A model generated the notes under the pieces. That model did not search any database, had not been told where the DNA came from, and worked only from the letters and a program-made list of their open reading frames with translations. A DNA stretch of 24,000 bases, taken from positions 1,971 to 25,970 of the forward strand of contig NZ_SRYG01000006.1 of NCBI RefSeq assembly GCF_004793885.1, read 5' to 3'. The position numbers and the translations under genes are program-made. Below, one piece after another: positions 2,831 through 23,350 of this stretch. Positions within the stretch are counted from its first letter, which is position 1, and every line of letters begins with the position of its first letter. Origin of the DNA: Dubosiella muris (GTDB lineage: Bacteria > Bacillota_I > Bacilli_A > Erysipelotrichales > Erysipelotrichaceae).

Positions 2831-3814
2831 TTAAAAGGTACCATCCTCCCGGTCTTTCAGAGCAGTATACGCGGTTTGTGCAAAATAGTTCATCGCTTCG
2901 ACAGGATAAGAGCCAGACGCCGTTTCCCCCGTCAGCATAATCGAGGACGCCCCATTGTAAACCGCGTGGTAAATATCGGATATTTTCGCCCGTGTCGGGA
3001 TGGGAGAAGTCATCATCGAGTGCAGCATTTGCGTCACGATCATATACGGCTTTTCATGCCTGCGACATATTTTCTCCAAGTCGTGCTGCGCGCTGGCCAG
3101 ATGGACAAGACCAACCGAATCGGCAAGATCTCCACGGGCGATGATCAATTCATCGCAATACGGAAGCAGGGATTCCGCCATCGCGATTCCTTCTTTTGAT
3201 TCGATCTTGGCGTATAGGCAGGCGTTTTTTAGACCACACGCATCCATTTGCGCACGAACCTTTATCAAATCTTCTGTGCTGCGAACAAACGGCTGCATGA
3301 TGCCGGTGACGCCATATTGCGCCGCGCACGATAAATTATCGAAGTCTTCTTTTGTCAAAACCGGCAAAGGGATCGACACATTTTGGATGGTGATACTTTT
3401 CCGGGGAAGAAGCAGGCCGCCCCGGAGAACTTTGGATTTCTCATGATCTACGGTTTCAAGCAGGATCCTGCCATCGTCCACGAGGATTTGGACACCAGTT
3501 TTTAAATAGGGTCGCACACAATCCGGAAATCCAAGCGTGTTCGTCATCACGATATGATCTGTTTCCAGTGGCAAAGGCGATAAAGAAGCGGAGGTTCTTA
3601 ATTCCGGACCTTGCATATCTATAAGAAGCTGAGGAGAAACGCCGCACCGCTTGGCCGCGATATGAAAGTTGGCGATCCAGTCGGCATGTTGCGCCAGATT
3701 GCCATGCGACAAGTTCAGCCGCATCCCTGTGGCACCAGCCCGAAACAAAGCCATAATCGTTTCGACTTCATGGCAGGCCGGGCCAAGCGTTCCGAATATA
3801 TAAAGGTCTTTCAT
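2831..3814 (-). CDS. Short pyruvate-kinase-family protein (A and B domains only, no C-terminal domain)
   Basis: PK motifs are present: GTLGPA, MRLNLSHG, DMQGPELR, AKIESKEG, ARGDLA, TQMLHSM, PTRAKISD and MLTGETASGSYP. I chose the ATG at 3814 (MKDLYIFGTLGP aligns with PK N-termini) over the TTG at 3829 in the ORF track. The ATG lies 1 nt after the ldh stop. Confidence 0.75.
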   Translation of the reverse strand: MKDLYIFGTLGPACHEVETIMALFRAGATGMRLNLSHGNLAQHADWIANFHIAAKRCGVSPQLLIDMQGPELRTSASLSPLPLETDHIVMTNTLGFPDCVRPYLKTGVQILVDDGRILLETVDHEKSKVLRGGLLLPRKSITIQNVSIPLPVLTKEDFDNLSCAAQYGVTGIMQPFVRSTEDLIKVRAQMDACGLKNACLYAKIESKEGIAMAESLLPYCDELIIARGDLADSVGLVHLASAQHDLEKICRRHEKPYMIVTQMLHSMMTSPIPTRAKISDIYHAVYNGASSIMLTGETASGSYPVEAMNYFAQTAYTALKDREDGTF

Positions 3815-3815
3815 A

Positions 3816-4775
3816 TTAACGACTCTCAAGTACCGGATTCACAGTTTCCGTCCAGATTTTTTCTAACAACCGGCAGCTATCCAAAAACCGCTGCTGCTCG
3901 GCGGGTTCAAGCTCAAGCTCCAGCTTTTCAATGACGCCTTTCGCCCCGATGATAGCAGGAACCCCGTTATAAATACCCGTATAACCATATTCACCATTTT
4001 GTTTAGCCGAAACGGTAAGAATGCTGTTTTCGTCATTTAAAACGGCTTGGACAAGTCGATTGAGCGTCATTCCAATCCCGTAATATGTCGATTTTTTCCG
4101 ATTGACGATTTCGTACCCGGCATTGCGCACCTCGTCAAAGACTTCTTCCAGCATGTCTTCGTCGATTTTACGGGACTTCAATACATTCCGTATGGTCTTG
4201 CTTCCAATGCAGGCATGGGACCATGGCACAAAGCTCGAATCTCCGTGTTCGCCAAATACGTAAGCATGAATATTGTAAGGAGAAACCTGGAGACATTCGC
4301 TTAGACGAAAACGCAAACGAGCCGTATCCAGCAAGGTTCCCGTACCAATGACCCGGTTCGTCGGAAGGTTGGACACTTTCTGCGCGACCGCTGTCATTAA
4401 ATCAACCGGATTGGTCGCCACGATCAGGATGCCGTCAAAACCGGAAGCCATGATTTGCTCGGTGACCGACTGGACGATTTTTGTGTTATCGACCGTTAAA
4501 TCCAGACGGGTCTGATCGGAGCGCTGAATGATGCCGGCAGTGATGACGACAATATCGGCGCCTTTGCAGTCGGCATAGTCACCCGCTTTCATGCGGATTT
4601 GTTTTTTGGCAAAACAGCCGGCATGCTGCAAGTCCATGGCTTCGCCAATCGCTTTTTCTTTGTTCAAGTCGATTAAAACGAGTTCATCGACATTCCCCTG
4701 AACGACTAAGCTGTAGGCAAAGCTCATTCCCACCAGCCCTGTTCCAACGAGAACGATTTTTTTATTGTTTTTCAT
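3816..4775 (-). CDS. ldh: L-lactate dehydrogenase family 2-hydroxyacid dehydrogenase
   Basis: 319 aa. Motifs are the Rossmann GTGLVG, ITAGIIQRSDQTRLDL (LDH-type Gln and Arg), LDTAR and GEHGDS (catalytic His). GGAG lies upstream of the start. Confidence 0.85.
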   Translation of the reverse strand: MKNNKKIVLVGTGLVGMSFAYSLVVQGNVDELVLIDLNKEKAIGEAMDLQHAGCFAKKQIRMKAGDYADCKGADIVVITAGIIQRSDQTRLDLTVDNTKIVQSVTEQIMASGFDGILIVATNPVDLMTAVAQKVSNLPTNRVIGTGTLLDTARLRFRLSECLQVSPYNIHAYVFGEHGDSSFVPWSHACIGSKTIRNVLKSRKIDEDMLEEVFDEVRNAGYEIVNRKKSTYYGIGMTLNRLVQAVLNDENSILTVSAKQNGEYGYTGIYNGVPAIIGAKGVIEKLELELEPAEQQRFLDSCRLLEKIWTETVNPVLESR

Positions 4776-4874: not shown

Positions 4875-4880
4875 GATGCA

Positions 4881-4909
4881 AAAAATTGCGTTTACTTTGC
4901 AAGAGCCAA
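4881..4909 (+). promoter_or_regulatory. Candidate sigma-A promoter of the PRD-regulator/PTS operon
   Basis: TTTACT (4881-4886), 17 nt, TATGAT (4904-4909). It would give a leader of about 55 nt that contains a cre-like element, AAAAAGCGCTTACA (4939-4952). Confidence 0.35.
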
Positions 4910-4971
4910 TTTTTATGATAAGTGTGTCAAGCGAAAGAAAAAAGCGCTTACATAATGAGGAGGTGGCAAAA

Positions 4972-6870
4972 ATGAGACTTTATTCAATCATGCGCGATTT
5001 TATCGAAACGGCTGATTGTCTGAATCTCAAGTATTTTACGGAAAAGTATCACGTTTCCAAACGGACAATACAAGGGGATCTCTCCTATTTCATGAATATC
5101 GGGGAGAGAAACGGGTTCAAGCTGCATACAATCCGTGGAAAAGGATATTTGCTGGAAGTGACAGACTCAGAAAAATTTGACCGGTTTGTTGCGCAGCTGG
5201 CCCAGCAGCATCCAACCGTTCCTCCAGACACACCTGAAAATTTGACCGCTTTTCTCGCGGTGCAAAAAGACTACATTTCTATGGAAGAAACAGCTTTCCA
5301 TTTTCACATCAATCGGTCGGCGGTCAAAGCGCTCATTAAAGAAGTTGAAACGTTTTGCCGCAAATACGATGTGGTTCTGGAAATCAAAAGCCATTATGGC
5401 TTGCGTCTAAAAAAAGACAATCTCGCATTTACGACGATGCTGGCGGAAATGCTGGAAGCGGATAATCCGGTGTTAAAGCTTTATATGGAGCAATCTCTTC
5501 CTGTTTTTCGGACCATCTATCCGTTTCTCATTGATCAGATTACCGAGAGCCGGCAGCAAATCAACTACAATGAACTGAAAACGATTTATATTTGGCTGGG
5601 AGCGATCGCTCTTCAGGCTTCGCTTCTTTGTTTGCCGGAAGAAAGATACCGCGTAAAAAACACCCCGGTCGATCGCATTGCGGACGCGGTTTTTCAACAG
5701 CTCAATAAAAACGCGGGTTTAAATTTCGCGGCCTGGCAATATGAAGTGTTTGTGGATGTGGTCCGAAGCAATATTCGACTTAAAGATGCCTCGCTGGATA
5801 TTAGCGACCAGCTGGAAAACCATATCGAAGAATTTTTGAAAGGAATTGACGCGCGATACAACACAAAATTTACGGATGACGAAAATTTCAAAAAAATGCT
5901 GTCGGAACATGTCTGTCTTCTTGTAAGCCGAAGCCATCAAAAAGTGTCGTATAAAAATTCGATGCTTCATGAAATCTGTATTCGGTATCCGCTCGTATTC
6001 AGTGTGGCAATCGAATTTTCCAATATGCTTCAACAACTGTACGGGATTACAGTGACCCAGGATGAAGCGGCTTTTATTGCTACTCATTTTGCAGGTCACC
6101 TGGAAAAAGAAAAGAGAGAAAAGCTCATGCGGTTTGATCGGGTAGCTGTCGTCTGCTCAAGTGGCGGCGGATGTGCTTATCTTCTGAAGATGCAGCTGGA
6201 AACGATTTTTCCCCAGCAAAAAATTCAGACATTCAGCTTTCTGAATATGGATGAACTCGAGTTATTCGATCCCGATATTATTTTCACGATCATGCCGCTA
6301 AACCGGGAGTTTAATATACCTATTATTTATATTCATGAGTTGTTGGAACCGGAAGATCTGGCAGCGATCCGGCAATTTCTATCTTATGACTGCATACAAA
6401 ATTTTCAATTATCGGATACATCAAGTAAATTTGATGCTTTGTTTTCCCGGCGATACTTTCAAGTTCGGAAAGCTGGTTCCTACAAAGAACTTATCTCCGA
6501 GATGGCGGATCAGTTGATAAAAGACGATGTTGTGGAAGCGGAATACAAAGACAGCGTGCTTGAGCGGGAAAAATACATGAGCACCGTATTCTTCAATGGC
6601 GTCGCGTTACCGCATCCAATCAAGCTTTGCGCAAAGAAAAGCGTGATTTCCGTCTGTATACTCGATACGCCTTTGATGGAGCAGGGAAAGGAAGTTCGCA
6701 CTGTTTTTCTTATCTCCCTTCGCAAAGATGAATATGGAAAATATGAGGAGATTACGAAGCTTTTTTACAAACTGATGCAGGACAGAGGAAGCGCCAGTCA
6801 CATGGCGGCTGCCCGTTCTTTTGAACAAATGCGATTGATTCTTAGAGAAGTGGAGGCTACGGTTTCATGA
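4972..6870 (+). CDS. PRD-domain transcriptional regulator with HTH, Mga-like HTH, two PRDs, an EIIB(Gat)-like and an EIIA(Mtl)-like domain (LicR/MtlR/ManR class)
   Basis: 632 aa counted from the ATG at 4972, which is preceded by GAGGAGGTG. The N-terminal HTH is LKYFTEKYHVSKRTIQGDL. The PRD signature is DEAAFIATHFAGHLE. The EIIB-like motif is VAVVCSSGGG and the EIIA-like motif is GVALPHP. The ORF-track start at 4876 has no RBS. Confidence 0.85.
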   Translation: MRLYSIMRDFIETADCLNLKYFTEKYHVSKRTIQGDLSYFMNIGERNGFKLHTIRGKGYLLEVTDSEKFDRFVAQLAQQHPTVPPDTPENLTAFLAVQKDYISMEETAFHFHINRSAVKALIKEVETFCRKYDVVLEIKSHYGLRLKKDNLAFTTMLAEMLEADNPVLKLYMEQSLPVFRTIYPFLIDQITESRQQINYNELKTIYIWLGAIALQASLLCLPEERYRVKNTPVDRIADAVFQQLNKNAGLNFAAWQYEVFVDVVRSNIRLKDASLDISDQLENHIEEFLKGIDARYNTKFTDDENFKKMLSEHVCLLVSRSHQKVSYKNSMLHEICIRYPLVFSVAIEFSNMLQQLYGITVTQDEAAFIATHFAGHLEKEKREKLMRFDRVAVVCSSGGGCAYLLKMQLETIFPQQKIQTFSFLNMDELELFDPDIIFTIMPLNREFNIPIIYIHELLEPEDLAAIRQFLSYDCIQNFQLSDTSSKFDALFSRRYFQVRKAGSYKELISEMADQLIKDDVVEAEYKDSVLEREKYMSTVFFNGVALPHPIKLCAKKSVISVCILDTPLMEQGKEVRTVFLISLRKDEYGKYEEITKLFYKLMQDRGSASHMAAARSFEQMRLILREVEATVS

Positions 6871-12909: not shown

Positions 12910-14166
12910 TTATTTTTTGAAGATCCTGTATTTTGTATTCATGCCGGAACCGTTTTTTTGAATCAATCCTTTAGAGGACAACGAATGCAGAAGGCGAACG
13001 GTTTTCGCTTTGCTGAAGCCGGTCCGCTCTTCCAGCTGCGCTCTCGACAACAAAGTCGAAGAAGACAAGTTGCTTAATATCGTCTTTTCATCGGCTGAAG
13101 TCTCGATGACCGTATCCGACACGGGAAGAACAACGGTGATGGAATTGTCGTAGATTTTAAATTCCGGACTGGCTTGATAGGGGTCATAGGCTTTCTTGAC
13201 CCTTTTGATTCCGGAGCCAAACATTTCAATGTACGCGAGTCTGAAAAAGATATTTCCTAAAATTGGATTTCGCAAAAAACTGATTTGTCCATCCAGATAT
13301 TCCGCTTCGCTGATGCCGGCCGGCAATCCGCCAGGCGACGTGATTTCTATTTTGTCTTGATCCATCGAAATCCTGATTCTTGTTTGGATGTCCCATGTCC
13401 GATGGACCAAGGCGTTTGCGAGCGCTTCGCGAAACGCTTCCTTTGGAATCATTTCTTTTTGGACGCGTTGGCTCCCTTCGATTTTTTCATAACAATAATA
13501 TTTCCGGTACATTTCCATCGCTTGATGGTACATACAGAAAACGGACATATGATCATAGGTTTGACGTTCCATGAGTTCGTTGATATTCCGCCCGTATCGT
13601 ACGAGATCCACGCCTGGAAACCGGTTTTCATCCGCGACAAGAGCCGCGGCGTGATTATAGGTGTTTTTATCCATCAACCCTAATGTTTTCAAAATGTCCG
13701 GTGTTATCGTTTCGACGCCTTTCTTTTGAAAAAATTCTTTTCCAAGTTGAGAGAAAGTCAAATCTTGTATAGATGAAGGCTGTTCTTCGTAGGTTTGATT
13801 CGAACCTTCCAGAATCAGGCGGTTTAGCTCAAGACGATCCACTTCGATCGTTGCCGAATCGTTTCTTTTATACGTTTTTCCTTTATAAAAATAAGGGGTG
13901 TAAGGACCTTTCAAGATGTTCAGGGTTATGGTTTGATCTTCGTTTATATCTAAAGTGTAGGAAGGGAGCGGCTTGATCGCATCGTTGATTTTGTTTTCCA
14001 AACGCAAACAGGCGTCAACCGGATGCTCGATTCCCGGAACCGTGCCATCGTCACGGATCCCAAAAATGATTTTTCCATCGCCAAAATTTGCGTAAGCTGA
14101 TATTGTTTTTAAAAATGAATTTGTATCGACGGTTTCTTTCAATTCCAGATTCCTGCTTTCGCGCAT
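12910..14166 (-). CDS. Schlafen/AlbA_2-domain protein with an HATPase_c_4-like middle domain and a C-terminal winged HTH (COG2865-type putative regulator)
   Basis: 418 aa counted from the ATG at 14166, which is preceded by AAAGAGGTGAT. The N-terminus is ESRNLELKE...AYANFGDGKIIFGI. The middle region is EALANALVHRTW...ITSPGGLP. The C-terminus is LSRAQLEERTGFSKAKTVRLLHSLSSKGLI. Confidence 0.75.
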   Translation of the reverse strand: MRESRNLELKETVDTNSFLKTISAYANFGDGKIIFGIRDDGTVPGIEHPVDACLRLENKINDAIKPLPSYTLDINEDQTITLNILKGPYTPYFYKGKTYKRNDSATIEVDRLELNRLILEGSNQTYEEQPSSIQDLTFSQLGKEFFQKKGVETITPDILKTLGLMDKNTYNHAAALVADENRFPGVDLVRYGRNINELMERQTYDHMSVFCMYHQAMEMYRKYYCYEKIEGSQRVQKEMIPKEAFREALANALVHRTWDIQTRIRISMDQDKIEITSPGGLPAGISEAEYLDGQISFLRNPILGNIFFRLAYIEMFGSGIKRVKKAYDPYQASPEFKIYDNSITVVLPVSDTVIETSADEKTILSNLSSSTLLSRAQLEERTGFSKAKTVRLLHSLSSKGLIQKNGSGMNTKYRIFKK

Positions 14167-14186
14167 TGTGATCACCTCTTTTTGAT

Positions 14187-14215
14187 ATTGTATATCGAAT
14201 CGAGTTGGTGTGCAA
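14187..14215 (-). promoter_or_regulatory. Sigma-A-type promoter of the Schlafen-like gene
   Basis: Read on the minus strand: TTGCAC (14215-14210), 17 nt, TACAAT (14192-14187). Confidence 0.6.
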
Positions 14216-14225
14216 CGAGAGCTTC

Positions 14226-14276
14226 CTCGACTCAAAAATTTATGAGTCGAGAGCTTTATCGACTCAAGTCGACTCG
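14226..14276. repeat. Cluster of four copies of the heptamer GAGTCGA/TCGACTC, including a 9-bp-stem inverted repeat
   Basis: CTCGACTCA (14226-14234) and TGAGTCGAG (14243-14251) form a perfect inverted repeat. Further copies are TCGACTCA at 14259-14266 and GTCGACTCG at 14268-14276. Confidence 0.7.
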
Positions 14277-14476
14277 TTCGTGCAGTAAAAAGGTTTTACA
14301 GGGGAAAACTTTTCACTTTCCGTAACGACAATCAGCTCGTTTGCCTGGTTGGCGGGCGTATCTGGTCTTTGTTCGTGAACCCCCGCCTTGTCGTCGTAGC
14401 CGTCGACGCCGATAAAAAACTTGTCCACAAGAAAGTGGCTCGCCGTGTCTTTGACAAACGGCCCGACGGCTGTTTT
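14264..14476 (-). pseudogene. Internal/3-prime fragment of a DeoR-family regulator (sugar-binding C-terminal domain) with no start codon
   Basis: My manual minus-strand translation gives [36 protein letters not shown]...ANELIVVTESEKFSPV. This carries the DeoR C-domain signatures VGP, VDKxFxGxDG and VVTxSxKF. A stop lies immediately upstream (14477-14479), and only 13 codons follow the SxKF motif. Confidence 0.6.
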
Positions 14477-14664
14477 TCAACCGCCTGCATGGCTACCATG
14501 TGCAATACAACATTGTTTCGAAGGCGACGCTGCTGGACGCGCAGGCCCATCCGGAAAAGCATCGGGATCTTATTGTCCGCGTGGCGGGATACAGCGCGTT
14601 TTTCAACGTGCTGTCGAAAAAGACGCAGGACGATATCATCGGGCGGACGAAGCAAACGTTATAA
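14470..14664 (+). pseudogene. 3-prime remnant of a glycyl-radical enzyme (PFL-like) gene: the C-terminal glycyl-radical domain only
   Basis: My manual translation gives [64 protein letters not shown]. The RVAGYSAFF glycyl-radical motif has its Gly codon at 14587-14589. There is no ATG or RBS, and in-frame stops lie at 14413 and 14452. Confidence 0.85.
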
Positions 14665-16917: not shown

Positions 16918-17967
16918 CTATTTGATTTTGTGGATGAGCAGGCTCGAGAAAGCGTGAAAATCCGTTTGCGCGGACAGGCGGGTCATGAACTCCTCGTCGG
17001 AAAGCAAGCTGACAAGCGGTTCGTACACGTTCAGGAAGACGCGTTTGTCGACTTCGTTGATGGCGAGCAGAAAGACGGCGTACACTTTTTGCTCGTTGTT
17101 CCATAAGACCCCTTCCGGGCACAAGGCGACGCTGACCTTTGTTTCCCGGGCCGAGGAAACGAGTGGGTGCGGGATGGCGAAGCCGCCAAACGCGGTGGAA
17201 CACGCCTTTTCGCGTTCGAGTACGCTTTTTTCGAAATCCGACGCGACGATTTCCTTTTCGTTGAATCGGGCGCACATTTGATGAAGCAGCGCCTCTTTGC
17301 TCGTTTTGCGGACGACGGAAAAGAACGGTTCCTGGAAATATTCGAAAAAATGGTTTCGAATCATTTCCCCTTTTTTCCGCTCTTTGATTTTTAAGATTTT
17401 TTTGCTGAGCGCCTGCTGGGTGTATGGTGTCCAGATCGGCGAAAGCGATATGACTTTTTGGCTCGAAACGGTCGAGAGTGGAATCGTAGAAACGACAAGG
17501 TCGTAGCCGTCGTCCATGCCGCTTTGTTCCGAGGAAGCGACGTGCGGAATGTAAAGCTCGTCGGCGAATCGCGTAGAGAGCGTTTGCAGCAAATCGGACT
17601 GGAAGTTCAAATACGCCGGACAGACGAGCAAGGTTTTCAGTTTTTGGTTGAGCGCGTTCGACTGGTCGATCCAGGAGGAGATGTGGATCGCGAAAAAGGC
17701 GATTTCGTCTTCCGGCAGCAGGACTTGAAAGTTTTTTTTGTATTCGACGGCCATGACGATCGCCATTTCATAAATGGTCGGGCTGATTTGCCGGATACTT
17801 TCTTTCATCGGTTTTTTGATGAATCCGCCTGTTTGCGCGCGAATGTTCAAATTGTGCAAATGGCGCAAAAACAATTCCTTGACTTCTTCCCGGTTGAGGT
17901 CGACATGAAACCTTTTTTCCAGCAAATCCAAAATTTGACTCGTGAAACGAATGTTTTTTTGATCCAT
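16918..17967 (-). CDS. PRD / EIIB(Gat)-like / EIIA(Mtl)-like protein lacking any DNA-binding N-terminus (possibly a truncated LicR/MtlR-class regulator)
   Basis: It is a paralogue of the C-terminal two-thirds of the 4972-6870 product. Shared motifs are DEIAFFAIHISSWID, LLVCPAYLN, SVLEREK and GGFAIPHP. I chose the first ATG (17967). The ORF track extends to a TTG at 18123. Neither start has a Shine-Dalgarno. Confidence 0.55.
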   Translation of the reverse strand: MDQKNIRFTSQILDLLEKRFHVDLNREEVKELFLRHLHNLNIRAQTGGFIKKPMKESIRQISPTIYEMAIVMAVEYKKNFQVLLPEDEIAFFAIHISSWIDQSNALNQKLKTLLVCPAYLNFQSDLLQTLSTRFADELYIPHVASSEQSGMDDGYDLVVSTIPLSTVSSQKVISLSPIWTPYTQQALSKKILKIKERKKGEMIRNHFFEYFQEPFFSVVRKTSKEALLHQMCARFNEKEIVASDFEKSVLEREKACSTAFGGFAIPHPLVSSARETKVSVALCPEGVLWNNEQKVYAVFLLAINEVDKRVFLNVYEPLVSLLSDEEFMTRLSAQTDFHAFSSLLIHKIK

Positions 17968-18061
17968 TTCAAAGGAAGGCTCGCTGGCGCGAGATTCCGG
18001 ATTTTGACTATAAACAGGTTTGAGGGACGCCTTGAACCTTTTTTCGTATGTGGTGTTTCTT

Positions 18062-18090
18062 TTTACGTCGTCGGATCGTTTCGATATAAT
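18062..18090 (+). promoter_or_regulatory. Candidate promoter of the AmmeMemoRadiSam operon
   Basis: TTTACG (18062-18067), 17 nt, TATAAT (18085-18090). An AAGGAG RBS follows at 18098-18103. Confidence 0.45.
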
Positions 18091-18113
18091 CAAGAAAAAG
18101 GAGATGATGTTGT

Positions 18114-19505
18114 ATGCATCCAATCACAAACGCGATGGTCGTGCCCCATCCGCCTATCTTTTTGCCCAACATTGGACAAGGACGGGAAGCCCAGGCGCAG
18201 CCCATCCTCGACGCGTACCGGGCGGCCGCGCAAAAACTGATCGCCTCCCAACCGGAAACCGTGGTCATTGTTTCGCCGCACGCGCCAAGCTACTTCGACT
18301 ACATTCAAATTTCCAGCGGGAAGGAAGGCGTCGGCGATTTGCACGCTTTTGGCGATTCCATCGACCGCTTTCAAATCCGCTACGATACCGAACTCATTGA
18401 GGAAATCAGCGCGATGTGCCTTCAGGAGGATATGCCCGCCGGCACGCTAGGCAAGCAGGACGGCCTGCTCGACCACGGCACGATGGTGCCGCTCTATTTT
18501 TTGAAAGACTTGCCGGCGTCGACCCGGTTCATCCGGATCGGCATTGGCGGCGTCAACGCCCGCCTGCATTATCAGCTGGGTTCGATCGTTCAACGCGCGG
18601 CCGCGAAGCTGGGTCGACGCGTCGCTATTGTGGGATCGGGCGATTTGAGCCACTGCCAAAAGGAGGACGGCGCCTATGGCTTTAAAGCGTGCGGTCCCGT
18701 TTACGACGAGAATATGATGCGCGTCTTAAAAACCGGCAATTTTCTCGCCCTGCTTTCGATTCCCGAACGCGATTCCGACGAGGCGATGGTTTGCGGGCAG
18801 AAATCGTTTTGCGTGCTGGCCGGCGCGCTGGACGGACTCGCCGTCATGGCAAGCGAGGGAGCGCACGCGGCGCCGTTTGGCGTCGGCTATGGCGTCGTGT
18901 CTTACGCCCCGCTTGGCTTGGATCCGCTTCGGCACTTTTTAATAACCGCCAACGCGCAGGCGCGGGCAGACTACGAAGCTCGCGTCGCCCGGGAGGACGA
19001 CTACGTAAAGCTGGCGCGGACCACCATCAACAACGAAATCGAAAAGAACGAGTTGACACTGCCTTCCATGGATTTGCCCGAAAAACTGTTGAAGGAGCGC
19101 GCCGGGGTCTTCGTATCCATCCATGAAAACGGCCGGCTGCGCGGCTGCATCGGCACGACGAGTCCGACGCGCGAGTGCGTCGCCAGCGAAATCGTGAGCA
19201 ACGCCATCGCCGCGGCCACCCGCGATCCGCGTTTTCCAGCGATACAGCCCTGGGAGCTCGAATCGCTTGAGATCCATGTTGACGTCCTCGGTCCGGCGTC
19301 TCGAATCGACTCCTCCGATTCGCTCGATTCCAAGCGGTACGGTGTCATCGTGACGAAAGGAAACAAGCGCGGGCTGCTGCTGCCGGATCTGGAAGGCGTG
19401 GACACCGTGGAGATGCAGCTTTCCATCGCGAAACAAAAAGCGGGACTCGATCCAAACGAGCCGGATTGCGTGCTCGAACGCTTTGAGGTGGAGCGCCACA
19501 TATGA
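18114..19505 (+). CDS. Fusion protein: N-terminal Memo/LigB-superfamily (class III extradiol dioxygenase-like) domain plus C-terminal AMMECR1 domain (AmmeMemoRadiSam system protein A type)
   Basis: 463 aa. The N-terminal domain carries AMVVPHPPIF, VSPHAPS, LDHGTMVPL and GSGDLSHC. The C-terminal domain carries GVFVSIHENGRLRGCIGTT, AATRDPRFP and KRGLLLPD, which are AMMECR1 signatures. Confidence 0.8.
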   Translation: MHPITNAMVVPHPPIFLPNIGQGREAQAQPILDAYRAAAQKLIASQPETVVIVSPHAPSYFDYIQISSGKEGVGDLHAFGDSIDRFQIRYDTELIEEISAMCLQEDMPAGTLGKQDGLLDHGTMVPLYFLKDLPASTRFIRIGIGGVNARLHYQLGSIVQRAAAKLGRRVAIVGSGDLSHCQKEDGAYGFKACGPVYDENMMRVLKTGNFLALLSIPERDSDEAMVCGQKSFCVLAGALDGLAVMASEGAHAAPFGVGYGVVSYAPLGLDPLRHFLITANAQARADYEARVAREDDYVKLARTTINNEIEKNELTLPSMDLPEKLLKERAGVFVSIHENGRLRGCIGTTSPTRECVASEIVSNAIAAATRDPRFPAIQPWELESLEIHVDVLGPASRIDSSDSLDSKRYGVIVTKGNKRGLLLPDLEGVDTVEMQLSIAKQKAGLDPNEPDCVLERFEVERHI

Positions 19506-20317
19506 AATGCGAGACATGTTTTCGCCATTGCGCGCTTGCCGAAGGACAGATTGGCTGGTGCAAGGCGCGGCAGCGCGTCGGGGATGTGATCGTCGACCGC
19601 AACTACGGGAAGATCAGCGCGCTCGCGCTGGATCCGATCGAGAAAAAGCCACTGGCGTTTTTCCATCCCGGCTCGATGATTTTGTCGGTCGGCAGCTACG
19701 GATGCAATCTGGCGTGTCCGTTTTGTCAAAACCACGCAATCGCGCAACGCGATCTCGATGGATCCTGCGCCTGGGTGACACCCGAACAACTTGTGGAAAA
19801 AGCGGTTTCCCTCGTTCCGCGCGGCAACATCGGCATCGCCTTCACATACAACGAGCCAATGCTTTCGTGGGAGTTTATCCGCGATACCGGCCGGCTGGCC
19901 AAGGCGAGAGGCTTGCAGGTCGTCGTCGTGACCAACGGTAGCGTGACGCTTCCTGTTTTGGAAAAGGTGCTGCCGTATGTCGACGCGTTTAACATCGACT
20001 TGAAAGGCTTTTCCAACGCGTACTACGACTATGTGTCCGGGAATCTGGAAACCGTCAAACGATTCATTGAACGGGCGGCGACGGATGCGCACGTCGAGCT
20101 GACGACGCTTGTCGTGCCGGGAAAAAACGACAGCTTGGAGGAAATGGAGGCGCTCTCCAGCTTTGTGGCGTCGATTTCTCCGTCGATTCCGCTGCATTTG
20201 ACCCGATACTTTCCACGATGGAAAGAGGAAACGCCCGCGACGTCCATCGAAACGCTGCAAGCGCTTCAAGCGGTGGCCCTTCGGCATCTCGACAAGGTTG
20301 TGCTAGGAAATGTATGA
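19502..20317 (+). CDS. AmmeMemoRadiSam-system radical SAM enzyme (PFL-activase-like)
   Basis: 271 aa. The N-terminus is CETCFRHCALAEGQIGWC. DPIEKKPL is present. The CNLACPFCQN Cx3Cx2C cluster lies at 19703-19726. There is an ATGA overlap with the upstream gene. Confidence 0.85.
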   Translation: MKCETCFRHCALAEGQIGWCKARQRVGDVIVDRNYGKISALALDPIEKKPLAFFHPGSMILSVGSYGCNLACPFCQNHAIAQRDLDGSCAWVTPEQLVEKAVSLVPRGNIGIAFTYNEPMLSWEFIRDTGRLAKARGLQVVVVTNGSVTLPVLEKVLPYVDAFNIDLKGFSNAYYDYVSGNLETVKRFIERAATDAHVELTTLVVPGKNDSLEEMEALSSFVASISPSIPLHLTRYFPRWKEETPATSIETLQALQAVALRHLDKVVLGNV

Positions 20318-20381: not shown

Positions 20382-20401
20382 GATTGACGAAGGAGAAACA
20401 C

Positions 20402-21349
20402 ATGCGAGCATTGAAGAAAATAAAAAAGATAGGAATCGCCCTGGCGGCGGTTTTCTCTATCGCTTATATGAGCGGGTGCGCGAGTCGTCCGGCGGACGAA
20501 TCCGCCGCCGAAGAAACGAAAGTCGTGCAAACGGACAAGGGGGAGGTCGAGATCCCGGCCCATCCGCAGCGAATCGTTTCCGATTACTATTTGGGCGAGT
20601 TTCTGGCGGTGGACACCAAGCCGGTCATCGCCTCGCCGTACGCGCTGGACAATCCGTATTTGGCGGATCAAGTCGAAGGCATTGAACCGATGAATATCAC
20701 CAGCGCGGAAACCGCGCAGGAAATGATCGCGGCCGCTGAGCCGGATTTGATCGTGACGATTACCGAAGCGGATTACGAGAAATACTCGAAAATCGCACCG
20801 ACGGTGTACATCGAGGACGGAAAGCGCAGCGACGAGCAGCTGTTTCGCTATATCGCGCAACTTGTTGGCAAAGAAAAGGAAGCGGACGAATATTTGCGGA
20901 AATTCCACGAGAAAGTGGAAAAAACCAAGCCGGAAGTCCAGCAGGCGGTTGGCGACAAAACCGTTTCGATCGTGGAAGTGTGGCCGCAGCAAATTTACTC
21001 CATGGGCAGTCATTTCGCCCGGGGCGGAACGATTCTTTACGATTTGTGGGGACTGAAAGCGCCGGAAACCGTGCAAAAGGAAATGGTCGATGGGGACGAA
21101 GCGTACCAAGTCGTTTCGCTTGAAGCGCTGCCGGACTATACCGGGGACTATATTTTATACGGCGTCCTTTCGGACACGGATCCGGATTTTGTCACGGATT
21201 CGGCGATTTGGAACAACTTGCCGGCCGTACAGGCAAAGCGGGTGCTTCCGTATCGGCAAGTGGCGTTCATGCATCGGGATCCGATCTCGCTCAACGGCCA
21301 GCTCGATGAGCTGTACGCGTTTTTAACGGGCAAAGAGGTGCAGGAATGA
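20402..21349 (+). CDS. Iron-siderophore-type ABC transporter substrate-binding lipoprotein (FhuD/FeuA class)
   Basis: 315 aa counted from the ATG at 20402, which is preceded by AAGGAG. The signal peptide has the lipobox AYMSGC. It is followed by FecCD permeases. The TTG at 20384 in the ORF track is rejected. Confidence 0.8.
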   Translation: MRALKKIKKIGIALAAVFSIAYMSGCASRPADESAAEETKVVQTDKGEVEIPAHPQRIVSDYYLGEFLAVDTKPVIASPYALDNPYLADQVEGIEPMNITSAETAQEMIAAAEPDLIVTITEADYEKYSKIAPTVYIEDGKRSDEQLFRYIAQLVGKEKEADEYLRKFHEKVEKTKPEVQQAVGDKTVSIVEVWPQQIYSMGSHFARGGTILYDLWGLKAPETVQKEMVDGDEAYQVVSLEALPDYTGDYILYGVLSDTDPDFVTDSAIWNNLPAVQAKRVLPYRQVAFMHRDPISLNGQLDELYAFLTGKEVQE

Positions 21350-22353
21350 GAAAGACGGTTAAAATCAAGCCCGCCTTTTATATGATTGTGATTTGTATCG
21401 CGGTGGTTTTCGCCGCGATTCTTTCTGTTTTTTTAGGGAGCACGAAAATCCCGGTTTTGGAAGTGCTTCAGGCGCTCGTTTCGCCCGATGGAACGAGCCA
21501 CGCGCATTTGGCGGTTTTAGAGCTGCGCATTCCACGCACGATTGGCGATTTGCTTGTGGGCGCCGCCCTGGCTTGCGCGGGGGCGATGATGCAAGGGGTC
21601 ACACGCAATCCGCTGGCGGACTGTGGCTTGCTTGGCATCAACGCTGGCGCGTCGTTCGCGCTGGCGCTTTGCCTTGGCGTGTTTTCCACGATGGATTTTG
21701 GATGGAGCGTCCTGGCTTCGATGGCGGGCGCCACAGTGGCGGCTTTGCTTGTGTTTGGCTCCATGCGGGTCGGCCGCCGTCCGTTCGATACCGGCCGGCT
21801 CGTGCTGGCGGGTCTGGCTGTCAGCATGTTGTTCACGTCGCTGGCCCAGGCCATTTCCTTGTTTACGAATACGGGACAGGACTTGGCGTTTTGGAGCGCT
21901 GGCGGCGTGGCCGGCATTCGGATGGAACAGCTGAAAATCGTGGGGCCGATCTTGCTGGCGGGCCTCGTGTGGGGTTTGCTGCTGGCGAAAAAAGTGGCGG
22001 TGCTCTCGCTTGGCGAAGAGGTCGCGCAAGGCCTGGGGGTGCCAGTCAAACGGGCGACGCTTCAATGTCTGGCGGCCGTGCTGCTCATGGCGGCTTGCTC
22101 GGTGGCGCTGGCGGGACCGATCGCGTTTGTCGGTTTGCTCGTTCCGTACATCGCGCGGTTTTGGATCGGGCCGAGCTATGAAACGCTCATTCCGGCTTCC
22201 ATGGTGACGGGGGCGCTGTTTATGGTCGTGGCGGATTTGATTTCCCGGGTAGTCAACGCGCCATCCGAAACGCCGGTTGGCTTGATTTTCGCGATCATCG
22301 GCGTGCCGGTGTTCGTGGCGCTGGCGCGCAAAGGAGGACGCGGTTTTGAGTAA
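21346..22353 (+). CDS. FecCD-family ABC transporter permease
   Basis: 335 aa and polytopic. FecCD motifs are LELRIPRTIGDLLVGAALACAGAMMQGVTRNPLADCGLLGINAGAS and PVGLIFAIIGVPVF. There is an ATGA overlap with the binding-protein gene. Confidence 0.9.
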   Translation: MRKTVKIKPAFYMIVICIAVVFAAILSVFLGSTKIPVLEVLQALVSPDGTSHAHLAVLELRIPRTIGDLLVGAALACAGAMMQGVTRNPLADCGLLGINAGASFALALCLGVFSTMDFGWSVLASMAGATVAALLVFGSMRVGRRPFDTGRLVLAGLAVSMLFTSLAQAISLFTNTGQDLAFWSAGGVAGIRMEQLKIVGPILLAGLVWGLLLAKKVAVLSLGEEVAQGLGVPVKRATLQCLAAVLLMAACSVALAGPIAFVGLLVPYIARFWIGPSYETLIPASMVTGALFMVVADLISRVVNAPSETPVGLIFAIIGVPVFVALARKGGRGFE

Positions 22354-23350
22354 AAAACAAAAGAGAAGACAGCGCGTCGTGCTGCTTGGACTGCTGGTGG
22401 CGCTGCTTGGATTGGTCGTGGTCGACTTGCAGTCCGGCTACGCGAACATTTCGCTGACGCAAATCGGGGAGATTTTGAGCGGCCGGGCGAGCCGGGCGCT
22501 GACGTATACGTTTTTAGAGTTGCGGATGCCGCGAATCGTCGTGTCTTTGCTTGTGGGCGTCGGGTTGTCGGTGTCGGGGATGCTCATGCAGTCGGTGACC
22601 CGCAACGAGATGGCCGACCCGGGGCTGCTGGGGATGAACGCGGGATCGGGTCTGCTGCTGGCGGTGTTTTTCGTTTTTTTTAAACAAAGCGTGGATCGTT
22701 TCTCGTTTTGGCTGCCGGTTTTATCGTTTGCCGGCGCGCTAGGCGTGTTTGGACTCGAATACCGGCTGGCGCTTGTCCGTCAGAAGATGCATCCGAAGCG
22801 GCTGCTGCTCATGGGCGTGGCGATTTCGCTGGCGCTTTCCTCTTTGACGACGATGCTGATGCTGCGGCTGCCCGATCAGGACTATGCGTTTGTGCAAAAC
22901 TGGCTGGCCGGCAACATTTGGGGCGCGAGCTGGGGAAACGCCGCGCTGCTCGCGGTCGGGTTTGTTCCGCTGCTGGGGGTGGCGTTTTATGGAGCGAAAA
23001 CGCTCAACCTCTTTGATTTGGGCGAAATTCCGGCGACGGCGCTGGGCGTGGATGTCAAGAGGCAGACGAAAAAGTTTTTGCTGGCGGCCATCGCCTTGTC
23101 CTCGCTTTGCTGCGCGGTCGGCGGCGGCTTGAGTTTTGTCGGTTTGATTTGTCCTCACCTGGCACGCAAACTCGTGGGTGTCAATCATCGGGTGCTCGTG
23201 ATTGGAAGCGTGTTGCTGGGTGGCGTGCTACTGACGGGCGCGGACATTGTTTCGCGCACATTGCTGCTGCCCAACGAGATTCCGGTCGGCATCGTGGCGA
23301 CGGTGCTTGGGGCTCCGTATTTCTTGTATTTGCTAGTAAAGGAGAAGTAA
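22346..23350 (+). CDS. FecCD-family ABC transporter permease (second subunit)
   Basis: 334 aa. The TTG start is preceded by AAGGAGG at 8 nt. Motifs are LELRMPRIVVSLLVGVGLSVSGMLMQSVTRNEMADPGLLGMNAGSG and PVGIVATVLGAPYFLYLL. Confidence 0.9.
   Translation: MSKKQKRRQRVVLLGLLVALLGLVVVDLQSGYANISLTQIGEILSGRASRALTYTFLELRMPRIVVSLLVGVGLSVSGMLMQSVTRNEMADPGLLGMNAGSGLLLAVFFVFFKQSVDRFSFWLPVLSFAGALGVFGLEYRLALVRQKMHPKRLLLMGVAISLALSSLTTMLMLRLPDQDYAFVQNWLAGNIWGASWGNAALLAVGFVPLLGVAFYGAKTLNLFDLGEIPATALGVDVKRQTKKFLLAAIALSSLCCAVGGGLSFVGLICPHLARKLVGVNHRVLVIGSVLLGGVLLTGADIVSRTLLLPNEIPVGIVATVLGAPYFLYLLVKEK

Follow-up and report, generated by a model that had tools for sequence, protein, structure and literature searches.

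A two-gene AmmeMemoRadiSam-type operon encoding a LigB-type/AMMECR1 fusion protein and a short radical SAM enzyme

Organization and conservation of the locus

The stretch of Dubosiella muris DNA that we analysed (24,000 nucleotides, hereafter the window) carries two overlapping genes on its forward strand. The first of these, at positions 18114 to 19505 (+), encodes a 463-amino acid protein in which a LigB-like domain is joined to an AMMECR1 domain, i.e., a B-A fusion of the AmmeMemoRadiSam type, as judged from the open reading frame (ORF), Pfam and TIGR04335 matches, homologues and an AlphaFold (AF2) model. The second, at 19502 to 20317 (+), encodes a 271-amino acid radical SAM protein, which TIGR04337, homologues and an AF2 model identify as a short form of the AmmeMemoRadiSam-type enzyme. 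A first-pass annotation made from the sequence alone had described both ORFs, their coupling through a shared ATGA and a series of motifs in each product; the coordinates and the stop/start overlap (19502..19505, +) were confirmed, and all of the quoted motifs were found at residues of the fusion and radical SAM proteins. Upstream of the fusion gene, a consensus scan returned a promoter-like site, TTTACG-17-TATAAT (18062..18090, +), which matches the consensus at 10 of 12 positions and is a pattern match only. A Shine-Dalgarno-like GGAG can be read at 18100..18103 (+), 10 nt 5' of the ATG at 18114. Within the fusion gene, the LigB-type (class III extradiol-dioxygenase-like) domain occupies residues 7-261 (18132..18896, +) and the AMMECR1 domain residues 298-461 (19005..19496, +), the two being separated by a helical linker of residues 262-297 (18897..19004, +) that was delimited from the AF2 secondary structure. 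The locus is a self-contained two-gene AmmeMemoRadiSam-type operon, with the radical SAM gene translationally coupled 3' of the fusion gene.

Homologues of about 460 amino acids number in the thousands and go by the NCBI name "AmmeMemoRadiSam system protein A"; relatives are present in at least 579 species genomes, and the best 120 homologues all share the LigB plus AMMECR1 architecture. Of 80 other species, 75 have the radical SAM gene beside the fusion gene in the same orientation, 69 of them at a distance of 150 bp or less; in 64 of the 80 it lies immediately 3' of the fusion gene, a 4-base overlap being the commonest spacing. The two genes are thus strongly co-conserved. When ORFs of at least 100 amino acids were clustered across 81 loci (the 80 other species plus a near-identical contig, L001), no third conserved gene emerged: the fusion and radical SAM genes alone recurred, and the remaining recurrent ORF "families" proved to be antisense ORFs of one or the other. 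Operons with separate LigB, AMMECR1 and radical SAM genes also exist, in which the gene order is kept and the genes overlap.

The proposal that this arrangement is a noteworthy two-gene variant could not be upheld. The fused form is the usual one in anaerobic Bacillota and has already been named by both PGAP and JGI, and AMMECR1-dioxygenase fusions of identical architecture were reported in 2007 by Balaji and Aravind (PMC2034487), so that the present locus is one more instance of an architecture that is known and catalogued rather than new.

Four neighbours were considered as possible associates of the module, and all four were rejected because none recurs in the 80 other loci: a divergent PRD/EIIA gene, an HD protein gene, a Gly_radical fragment, and an iron-type ABC importer just downstream, which had been considered because MEMO1 binds iron. 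Two of these had been noted at first pass as remnants without evident connection to the system, and both are real. The PRD/EIIA ORF aligns only to residues 301-656 of a 664-amino acid full-length regulator encoded elsewhere in the window. The glycyl-radical fragment (14500-14664, +; 54 amino acids) matches positions 71-106 of the 106 in PF01228 with 52.8 bits; it is the only Gly_radical sequence in the window and is located 4.8 kb 5' of the radical SAM gene.

The LigB-type and AMMECR1 domains of the fusion protein

Pfam LigB (PF02900) matched residues 7-261 of the fusion protein with 118.4 bits (E 4e-34; gathering score 26.3), and the domain carries the motifs VPHPP (10-14), SPHAPS (54-59), DHGT (120-123) and GSGDLSHC (174-181). 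A PDB profile search with this domain showed aminophenol and homoprotocatechuate dioxygenases to be its nearest solved relatives by sequence, with E values of 1e-17 for aminophenol dioxygenase beta and 1e-16 for TK2203. By Foldseek, the fold is shared with class III extradiol dioxygenases (PF02900; 3VSG/3VSH, LigAB 1BOU, DesB) at TM 0.66-0.78, while the nearest solved structure is TK2203 of Thermococcus kodakarensis (PDB 5HEE; E 8e-19, TM 0.84), an uncharacterised, stand-alone LigB-like protein with 18% identity to the domain. By sequence as well as by fold, the N-terminal domain is of the LigB type.

We next compared its metal site with that of aminophenol dioxygenase (3VSH), in which iron is held by H13, H62 and E251 (PMC11081632). 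In the alignment, H13 and H62 fall on H12 and H56 of the fusion protein, and E251 falls on position 226. Both histidine ligands are therefore kept, as are the equivalents of His121 and His180, but the position of the canonical glutamate is occupied by valine in the fusion protein and its 50 nearest relatives, and 51 of the best 120 homologues have V, S, A or G in its stead. This leaves the 2-His-1-carboxylate iron site incomplete. Cys227, which the HMM alignment places one residue past the dioxygenase glutamate, is invariant in those 120 homologues, together with H12, H56, D120, H121, D177 and H180; TK2203 has Pro-Asp where the fusion family has Glu/Val-Cys. Cys227 is probably a metal ligand alongside His12 and His56. 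Given that the glutamate ligand has been lost and the neighbouring cysteine is invariant, this subclade may combine a LigB scaffold with a metal site resembling that of Memo.

These observations bear on whether the domain might be a true O2-dependent extradiol ring-cleavage dioxygenase for an aromatic nutrient, to which AMMECR1 and the radical SAM enzyme would be linked only secondarily. The strong LigB match and the identity of its nearest solved sequence relatives speak for such an enzyme, but the carboxylate ligand is missing here and in 51 of 120 relatives, every dioxygenase equivalog model was missed by more than 250 bits, and no aromatic-catabolism genes were found nearby. Moreover, and unlike the class III extradiol dioxygenases, the domain is fused to AMMECR1 and has as its obligate partner a radical SAM enzyme, which is oxygen-sensitive. 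The hosts of the fusion are gut and rumen taxa, and these are obligate anaerobes. The O2-dependent reading is accordingly close to refuted. As far as the valine at the glutamate position, the invariant Cys227 and the gut and rumen hosts can tell, the domain is not a classical dioxygenase.

The first-pass annotation had called the domain Memo/LigB-like, and of this description the LigB part stood whereas the Memo part did not. PF01875 (Memo) scored 18.3 with the full protein and 20.3 with the domain alone, below its cut-off of 27; TIGR04336 (protein B) scored 22.3 and 24.4, just below its cut-off of 26; and the MEMO1-family model NF001987 gave 19-21 against a cut-off of 295. The B component is therefore a LigB-type rather than a Memo-type metal-binding domain, fused to the A component, AMMECR1. 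Some relatives score higher on TIGR04336, the best of them with E 4.8e-10, and some fusions carry the label "A/B" at JGI. No Memo match was obtained among the window ORFs scanned or the genes called on contig L001, in keeping with the earlier statement that the window holds no separate Memo gene.

What the domain has in common with MEMO1/Memo (PF01875; 3BCZ, 7KQ8) is a superfamily fold, with a Foldseek TM of 0.50-0.55 (E 2.5e-9). In prokaryotes, Memo also has partners identical to those of the N-terminal domain. MEMO1 binds Fe through two histidines and one cysteine (H49, H81 and C244; PMC11081632), and the invariant Cys-Gly that precedes a helix in the LigB-type domain resembles C244-G of MEMO1. 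At the level of residues, we infer a correspondence between Cys227 and MEMO1 Cys244; it was supported neither by HMM alignment to MEMO1, which gave 1 bit and paired only SGDLSH with SSDFCH, nor by hhalign against an animal MEMO1 profile, which returned a probability of 0.2% and no usable alignment. The PDB profile search with the domain did not reach Memo.

Like the LigB match, the assignment of the C-terminal domain lies far beyond chance: Pfam AMMECR1 (PF01871) covers residues 298-461 with 149 bits (E 1e-43, gathering score 25), TIGR04335 AmmeMemoSam_A is matched over 3-173 of its 175 positions with 130.7 bits, its cut-off being 99, and Foldseek paired the domain with the AMMECR1 structures 1zq7, 1vaj and 1wsc. 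Both of the active-site motifs defined for AMMECR1 by Balaji and Aravind in 2007, RGChG and DxRa (PMC2034487), are present, within LRGCIG (342-347) and DPRFP (371-375), and R343-G-C345-I-G and D371-P-R373-F374 are invariant in the best 120 homologues. The AF2 model of the whole fusion (pLDDT 94.6, pTM 0.90) implies a fixed arrangement of the two domains, which are bridged by linker helices at 275-292 and 296-311 (pLDDT >90). Taken together with the split operons, which keep the order B-A-radical SAM, this model lends weight to the earlier suggestion that the fusion argues for a physical complex between the A and B components.

The radical SAM partner

The 271-amino acid protein passed TIGR04337 AmmeMemoSam_rS with 222.9 bits against a cut-off of 220, matching model positions 12-286 of 349; the margin is narrow because positions 287-349 are absent. 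With TIGR04335 and TIGR04337 both passed, the assignment of the locus to an AmmeMemoRadiSam-type module held. Compared with the AmmeMemoRadiSam system defined by Haft (TIGR04335 for A, TIGR04336 for B, TIGR04337 for the radical SAM enzyme), the A and radical SAM components are matched and their genes are adjacent and co-conserved, but the B role is held by a LigB-type domain fused N-terminally to A, and the radical SAM enzyme is short, lacking about 60 of the last model positions. A C-terminally truncated gene was considered and rejected, as the homologues, which are named AmmeMemoRadiSam radical SAM enzyme, are all 268-312 amino acids long and all end in a conserved G-N.

The radical SAM [4Fe-4S] motif, C68-x3-C72-x2-C75 (19703..19726, +), lies within CNLACPFCQN (68-77), is invariant in homologues and is accompanied by a PF04055 match of 73.3 bits. 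A second cysteine motif, C3-x2-C6-x3-C10-x9-C20 (19508..19561, +), is found at the N-terminus. Each of its four cysteines is kept in 97-99% of 77 neighbour-encoded homologues, and 115 database homologues all keep C6, C10 and C20, with C3 retained in at least 90%. The motif may be a site for zinc or for an auxiliary Fe-S cluster.

Pyruvate formate-lyase (PFL) activase was the only solved structure reached by the sequence (E 1.8e-8). It was also by far the best match to the fold of the AF2 model (pLDDT 96.5), with a TM of 0.79-0.81 and E 2e-14; NifB, viperin and QueE followed at E 4e-9 or weaker. Like PflA (3C8F/3CB8), the protein is a small partial-barrel enzyme with a CX3CX2C motif, but it differs in having the extra four-cysteine motif, in having its own conserved DPxEKKPL (DPIEKKPL, 44-51), and in having no glycyl-radical enzyme as partner. 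Activases carry a DGxGxR loop, in the place of which DPxEKKPL stands here. The protein failed all glycyl-radical activase models, scoring 58.5 against a cut-off of 231.75 on TIGR02493 (PFLA), 45.6 against 174.35 on TIGR02494 and 40.7 against 131.15 on NrdG. A role as activase of the decayed glycyl-radical enzyme of the window was rejected on these scores and on its membership of TIGR04337.

It might nevertheless be an activase of its own partner and, in the manner of PFL-activase, alter a residue of the LigB-AMMECR1 protein by hydrogen abstraction or in some other way, so that the product, a radical-bearing or post-translationally modified enzyme, would carry out the actual chemistry; the invariant R-G-C-I-G loop would be the candidate site. 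In favour of this reading, PFL-activase, which stands nearest to the radical SAM protein in sequence and fold, acts on a protein. The similar size of the two enzymes, given the absence of the last 60 or so TIGR04337 positions, points the same way, as does the fact that the fusion is the sole conserved partner and tightly coupled in translation. It is opposed by the scores on the activase models and by the replacement of the DGxGxR loop. In addition, to our knowledge, eukaryotes keep AMMECR1 and Memo but lack a radical SAM enzyme of this kind, so AMMECR1 would not generally be in need of activation. We consider an activase role possible but unlikely, and the narrower claim that the enzyme leaves its LigB-AMMECR1 partner with a stable radical or a covalent modification, for example on the R-G-C-I-G loop, distinctly less probable again. 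Were that claim true, it would establish a new class of radical-activated metalloenzyme, capable of O2-free ring-opening or related chemistry, and a reaction would finally be assigned to AMMECR1/Memo proteins.

A proposed oxygen-independent joint reaction and its possible substrates

Their adjacency in 75 of 80 species, their status as the only two conserved families, the split operons and the pTM of 0.90 together suggest that the fusion and radical SAM proteins work together. All three catalytic modules are under selection, since H12, H56, D120, H121, D177, H180, C227, C345, D371 and R373 are invariant along with the radical SAM cysteines. The reading that we prefer, to which we give a probability of about 40%, is that the three modules act jointly, and independently of oxygen, on a single substrate that the fusion protein holds. 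The radical SAM protein would dock on the fusion protein and cleave SAM reductively, and the resulting 5'-deoxyadenosyl radical would take a hydrogen atom from the substrate. The transformation would then be finished by the LigB-like metal site, made up of His12, His56 and, probably, Cys227, together with Cys345, the invariant cysteine in the cleft of AMMECR1. No oxygen would be needed: the oxidising step, for which aerobic relatives use O2, would fall to the radical SAM enzyme.

The substrate of such a reaction would be a universal housekeeping molecule; at a guess, a free nucleotide or a small metabolite of heterocyclic or aromatic character is a likelier candidate than RNA or the fusion protein itself. 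A small molecule is weakly favoured because the proteins are acidic and no RNA-binding domain was found. Aravind's group has proposed otherwise from comparative genomics, with Balaji and Aravind arguing for RNA base modification (PMC2034487). According to this alternative, the AMMECR1 cleft, of the RAGNYA fold, would bind nucleic acid, and a base of tRNA or rRNA would be the target of the radical SAM and metal domains. In its favour, Balaji and Aravind pointed to the fold itself, to a catalytic cysteine in a Tyw3-like cleft and to the partners with which AMMECR1 is associated and fused, namely a ring-opening dioxygenase and a radical SAM enzyme (PMC2034487). The variable gene neighbourhood also suits a housekeeping target, and one of the split loci lies near queH, although this is anecdotal. 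On the other hand, searches with Pfam and TIGR models revealed no RNA-binding accessory domain, no tRNA or rRNA modification gene recurs near the 81 loci, and experimental support was not found in the literature searched. Furthermore, the proteins are acidic (family median pI 5.4) in all three of their modules; for the AMMECR1 domain the pI is 5.1 in this protein, with a median of 5.3 across the family. We regard RNA modification as unlikely, to about the same degree as an activase role, and retain the joint reaction on one substrate as the preferred reading.

AMMECR1 and MEMO1, proteins with conserved counterparts from archaea to humans, have both been connected with human disease, and we know of no reaction assigned to either. 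The best way into this problem is through the prokaryotic triad that includes a radical SAM enzyme. The literature searched contained no functional study of AmmeMemoRadiSam, with incidental mentions and the 2007 and 2020 papers of Aravind's group being all that was found. This opportunity for experiment has been visible in databases and publications since 2007, and the present locus adds nothing categorically new to it. Its two small additions are a subclade without the dioxygenase glutamate ligand but with an invariant adjacent cysteine, and a partner that represents a minimal, PFL-activase-like form of the radical SAM enzyme with an extra four-cysteine motif. The fused two-gene form is also a convenient experimental system, as it occurs in culturable gut anaerobes, Dubosiella, Faecalibaculum, Butyrivibrio and Blautia among them.

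The two genes and their distribution

The LigB-like/AMMECR1 fusion gene (18114-19505, + strand; 463 aa) and the radical SAM gene (19502-20317, + strand; 271 aa) were read as two ORFs on the same strand sharing an ATGA at their junction. A GGAG was read 10 nt 5' of the fusion ATG (+), and a promoter-like TTTACG-17-TATAAT was identified at 18062-18090 (+) by pattern match only. Pfam searches placed a LigB domain at fusion residues 7-261 (118.4 bits, E 4e-34) and an AMMECR1 domain at residues 298-461 (149 bits, E 1e-43). Using NCBIfam, the C-terminal half of the fusion passed TIGR04335, AmmeMemoRadiSam protein A (130.7 bits vs a cut-off of 99), and the 271-aa protein passed TIGR04337, the radical SAM enzyme of the system (222.9 vs 220). 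Both scores bear out the first-pass annotation, which had named this system; the ORF coordinates, sequence and domain scores likewise confirmed its two ORFs, their ATGA overlap and all the motifs that it quoted.

Of the 8,000 candidates scored in a search with the fusion protein, 7,999 matched significantly. The top 120 homologues, from sources including Dubosiella, Ileibacterium, Blautia, Mediterraneibacter and Oscillospiraceae, are all LigB+AMMECR1 proteins of 455-487 aa named 'AmmeMemoRadiSam system protein A' by NCBI. When one genome per species was scanned, at least 579 species were found to carry a relative, the best 80 being gut or rumen Lachnospiraceae, Erysipelotrichaceae, Oscillospiraceae, Selenomonadales, Acidaminococcaceae and Coriobacteriia. 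With only the N-domain (residues 7-261) as query, 1.84 billion cluster representatives yielded 2,126 matches, of which 323 had E values no higher than 1e-30; amongst the best 150 matches, 88 were at least 420 aa long (fused) and 33 were 255-299 aa (stand-alone). The LigB-AMMECR1 architecture is already catalogued, having been reported in 2007 (Balaji & Aravind, PMC2034487) and named in public annotation. The module had been put forward as a notable variant, a claim that we do not uphold: within Bacillota, this is the usual form that the known system takes. The remaining interest lies in the question of what AMMECR1/Memo does, and in nothing specific to this window.

Family and metal site of the N-terminal domain

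The HMM family check proposed in the first-pass annotation placed the N-domain above the Pfam LigB threshold, but below those of Pfam Memo (27 bits; full protein 18.3, isolated domain 20.3) and TIGR04336, protein B (26 bits; 22.3 and 24.4, respectively). Run against all PDB sequences, a profile built from 30 N-domains matched 2-aminophenol 1,6-dioxygenase beta (1e-17), TK2203 (1e-16), homoprotocatechuate dioxygenase and DOPA dioxygenases, with no match to MEMO1 up to E 10; profile-profile comparison of the N-domain with animal MEMO1 gave a probability of 0.2%. An AlphaFold2 model of the fusion, built from 120 homologues, was very confident (pLDDT 94.6, pTM 0.90) and depicts the fused protein as rigid. 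By Foldseek, the modelled N-domain matched TK2203 best (5HEE; TM 0.84, E 8e-19), followed by LigB-type dioxygenases (TM 0.66-0.78) and MEMO1 (TM 0.50-0.55, E 2.5e-9), and the modelled C-domain matched the AMMECR1 structures 1ZQ7, 1VAJ and 1WSC. Given the missed Memo thresholds and the preference of both the PDB profile and Foldseek for LigB-type proteins, the N-domain is LigB-type, sharing the Memo superfamily yet not Memo proper. Weak TIGR04336 matches in 30/30 N-domains tested (best 4.8e-10) and the 'A/B' label given by JGI to some fusions agree with a LigB-type protein in the B role.

The iron of aminophenol dioxygenase is bound by H13, H62 and E251 (PMC11081632). H12 and H56 of the fusion align to the two histidines of this enzyme (3VSG_B), and position 226 aligns to E251, the third iron ligand. 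The window protein has Val here. The 120 homologues have Glu (69), Val (41) or one of Ser, Ala and Gly (10), a split that runs by clade; Glu, Gln and Val account for 89, 13 and 8, respectively, of 149 family representatives (50% identity clusters). A-M-[VSAG]-C-G-[QH]-K (226-227 region; 18789-18794) is the version shared by the window protein and its 50 nearest relatives, whereas the 69 more distant homologues read A-A-E-C-G-H-R, keeping the Glu of the dioxygenase iron site. Judging by this alignment, the carboxylate ligand is absent from the window's clade. In MEMO1, the iron ligands are H49, H81 and C244, with Cys in place of the dioxygenase Glu (PMC11081632). The Cys of the fusion family, Cys227, is found in 120/120 homologues just after the Glu-ligand position. 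We infer a candidate Memo-like 2-His-1-Cys site on a LigB scaffold in the fusion family, the window subclade (Val/Ser/Ala/Gly at 226) being certainly amongst its putative bearers.

The nearest database copy of the fusion is P0001, from the near-identical contig L001, whose cluster has 64 member sequences. Compared with the window, it shows C>T at 18154 (codon 14) and carries Pro14Leu in the otherwise invariant P-H-P-P motif adjoining the His12 ligand. Two other differences within the operon are silent.

Pairing with the radical SAM enzyme

In 64 of the 80 species loci, a radical SAM gene (45-64% identical) lies directly downstream of the fusion gene on the same strand within 150 bp, most commonly with a 4-base overlap. 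It is on the same strand elsewhere in 11 (farther downstream in five, upstream in six). At one locus left unplaced by ORF clustering (L071), tblastn puts it ~70 bp downstream, and at four it was not found within the locus DNA examined. The genes are co-conserved and obligately paired. Clustering of every ORF of at least 100 aa in the 80 loci recovered only these two conserved families, the other recurrent clusters being their antisense ORFs; there is no third conserved gene.

Three stand-alone N-domain homologues occur in split operons of unchanged gene order, two with the radical SAM gene: L085 (LigB-like 284 aa, AMMECR1 175 aa, radical SAM 274 aa; genes overlapping), L086 (268, 172 and 277 aa; AMMECR1-radical SAM pair overlapping) and L084 (271 and 195 aa). 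Because the order is kept, the fusion is just the neighbouring B and A genes joined into one. In L085, queH (epoxyqueuosine reductase; 3287-3916) lies ~1 kb upstream, a single case and no conserved neighbour.

The radical SAM protein covers positions 12-286 of the 349 in TIGR04337. A truncated gene was ruled out, since its homologues are all 268-312 aa with a conserved C-terminal G-N; the protein is a genuine short form. It has the C68-x3-C72-x2-C75 motif and a conserved DPxEKKPL motif. Its N-terminal C3-x2-C6-x3-C10-x9-C20 (19508-19561), conserved among homologues, absent from PFL-activase and modelled with high confidence as short strands, could be the site of an auxiliary Fe-S cluster or zinc. 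PFL-activase is its sole PDB sequence match and the best fold match of its AlphaFold model (pLDDT 96.5, pTM 0.93; TM 0.79-0.81, E 2e-14), five orders of magnitude ahead of NifB, viperin and QueE (E 4e-9 or weaker). This likeness favours a rival explanation in which the fusion protein itself is what the enzyme activates or modifies; the radical SAM protein fails the PFL-activase family model (58.5 vs 231.75).

Proposed mechanism and genomic neighbourhood

The system comprises three catalytic modules with invariant active-site residues. The LigB-like domain probably does not work as an O2-dependent dioxygenase, given that the hosts are strict anaerobes and that it is partnered by a radical SAM enzyme; the rival reading of a true aerobic dioxygenase is nearly excluded. 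Most likely, the radical SAM enzyme would dock on the fusion protein and abstract hydrogen from a substrate lying between the AMMECR1 Cys345 cleft and the metal site, thereby standing in for O2, the possible oxidant in aerobic Memo/AMMECR1 pairs. A housekeeping substrate is suggested by the variable neighbourhood. As the pI values are acidic (5.3; family median 5.4) and no RNA-binding domain was found in the proteins, we lean weakly towards a free nucleotide or a small metabolite, either heterocyclic or aromatic, rather than the RNA base modification proposed by Balaji & Aravind (PMC2034487).

None of the module's window neighbours (an iron-siderophore/B12-type ABC importer, a PRD/EIIA gene, an HD protein and a Gly_radical fragment) was found in the 80 loci, and a functional link to any of them was rejected; the first-pass annotation had been rightly cautious about the PRD/EIIA gene and the fragment. 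The importer (20384-23350 and onward, +; Peripla_BP_2, two FecCD permeases, with the ATPase on the related contig) starts 66 bp past the radical SAM gene on the same strand, with no terminator-like site between, an adjacency that is lineage-specific. The divergent PRD + EIIA ORF (16918-18123, -) measures 401 aa when its first start codon is used, and the gene call on the related contig has 337 aa. Its alignment to the 664-aa PRD regulator of this window (4876-6870; 21% identity, E 9e-15) is confined to residues 301-656 of the latter, so that the N-terminal DNA-binding half is lacking.

The Gly_radical fragment (14500-14664, +; 54 aa, MQYNIV...RVAGYSAFF...) corresponds to the very C-terminal end of a glycyl-radical enzyme, matching positions 71-106 of the 106 in PF01228 (52.8 bits), and is a gene remnant as it lies inside a ~470-bp gap with no called genes. 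Another 54-aa ORF in this gap (14264-14428, -) has a weak, below-threshold match to a DeoR C-terminal sensor domain (E 0.005), and the gap may hold several gene fragments. Elsewhere, a 332-aa ORF (2831-3829, -) has only the pyruvate kinase barrel domain (PF00224), with no C-terminal domain match, and overlaps the end of the L-lactate/malate dehydrogenase gene (3816-4775) on the same strand. A 319-aa protein (1670-2629, +) carries a toxin-type HipA C-terminal kinase domain. Finally, a Schlafen AlbA_2 + HATPase_c_4 protein with a winged-helix-like C-terminal tail (12910-14235, -) is predicted to be a transcription regulator or ATPase.
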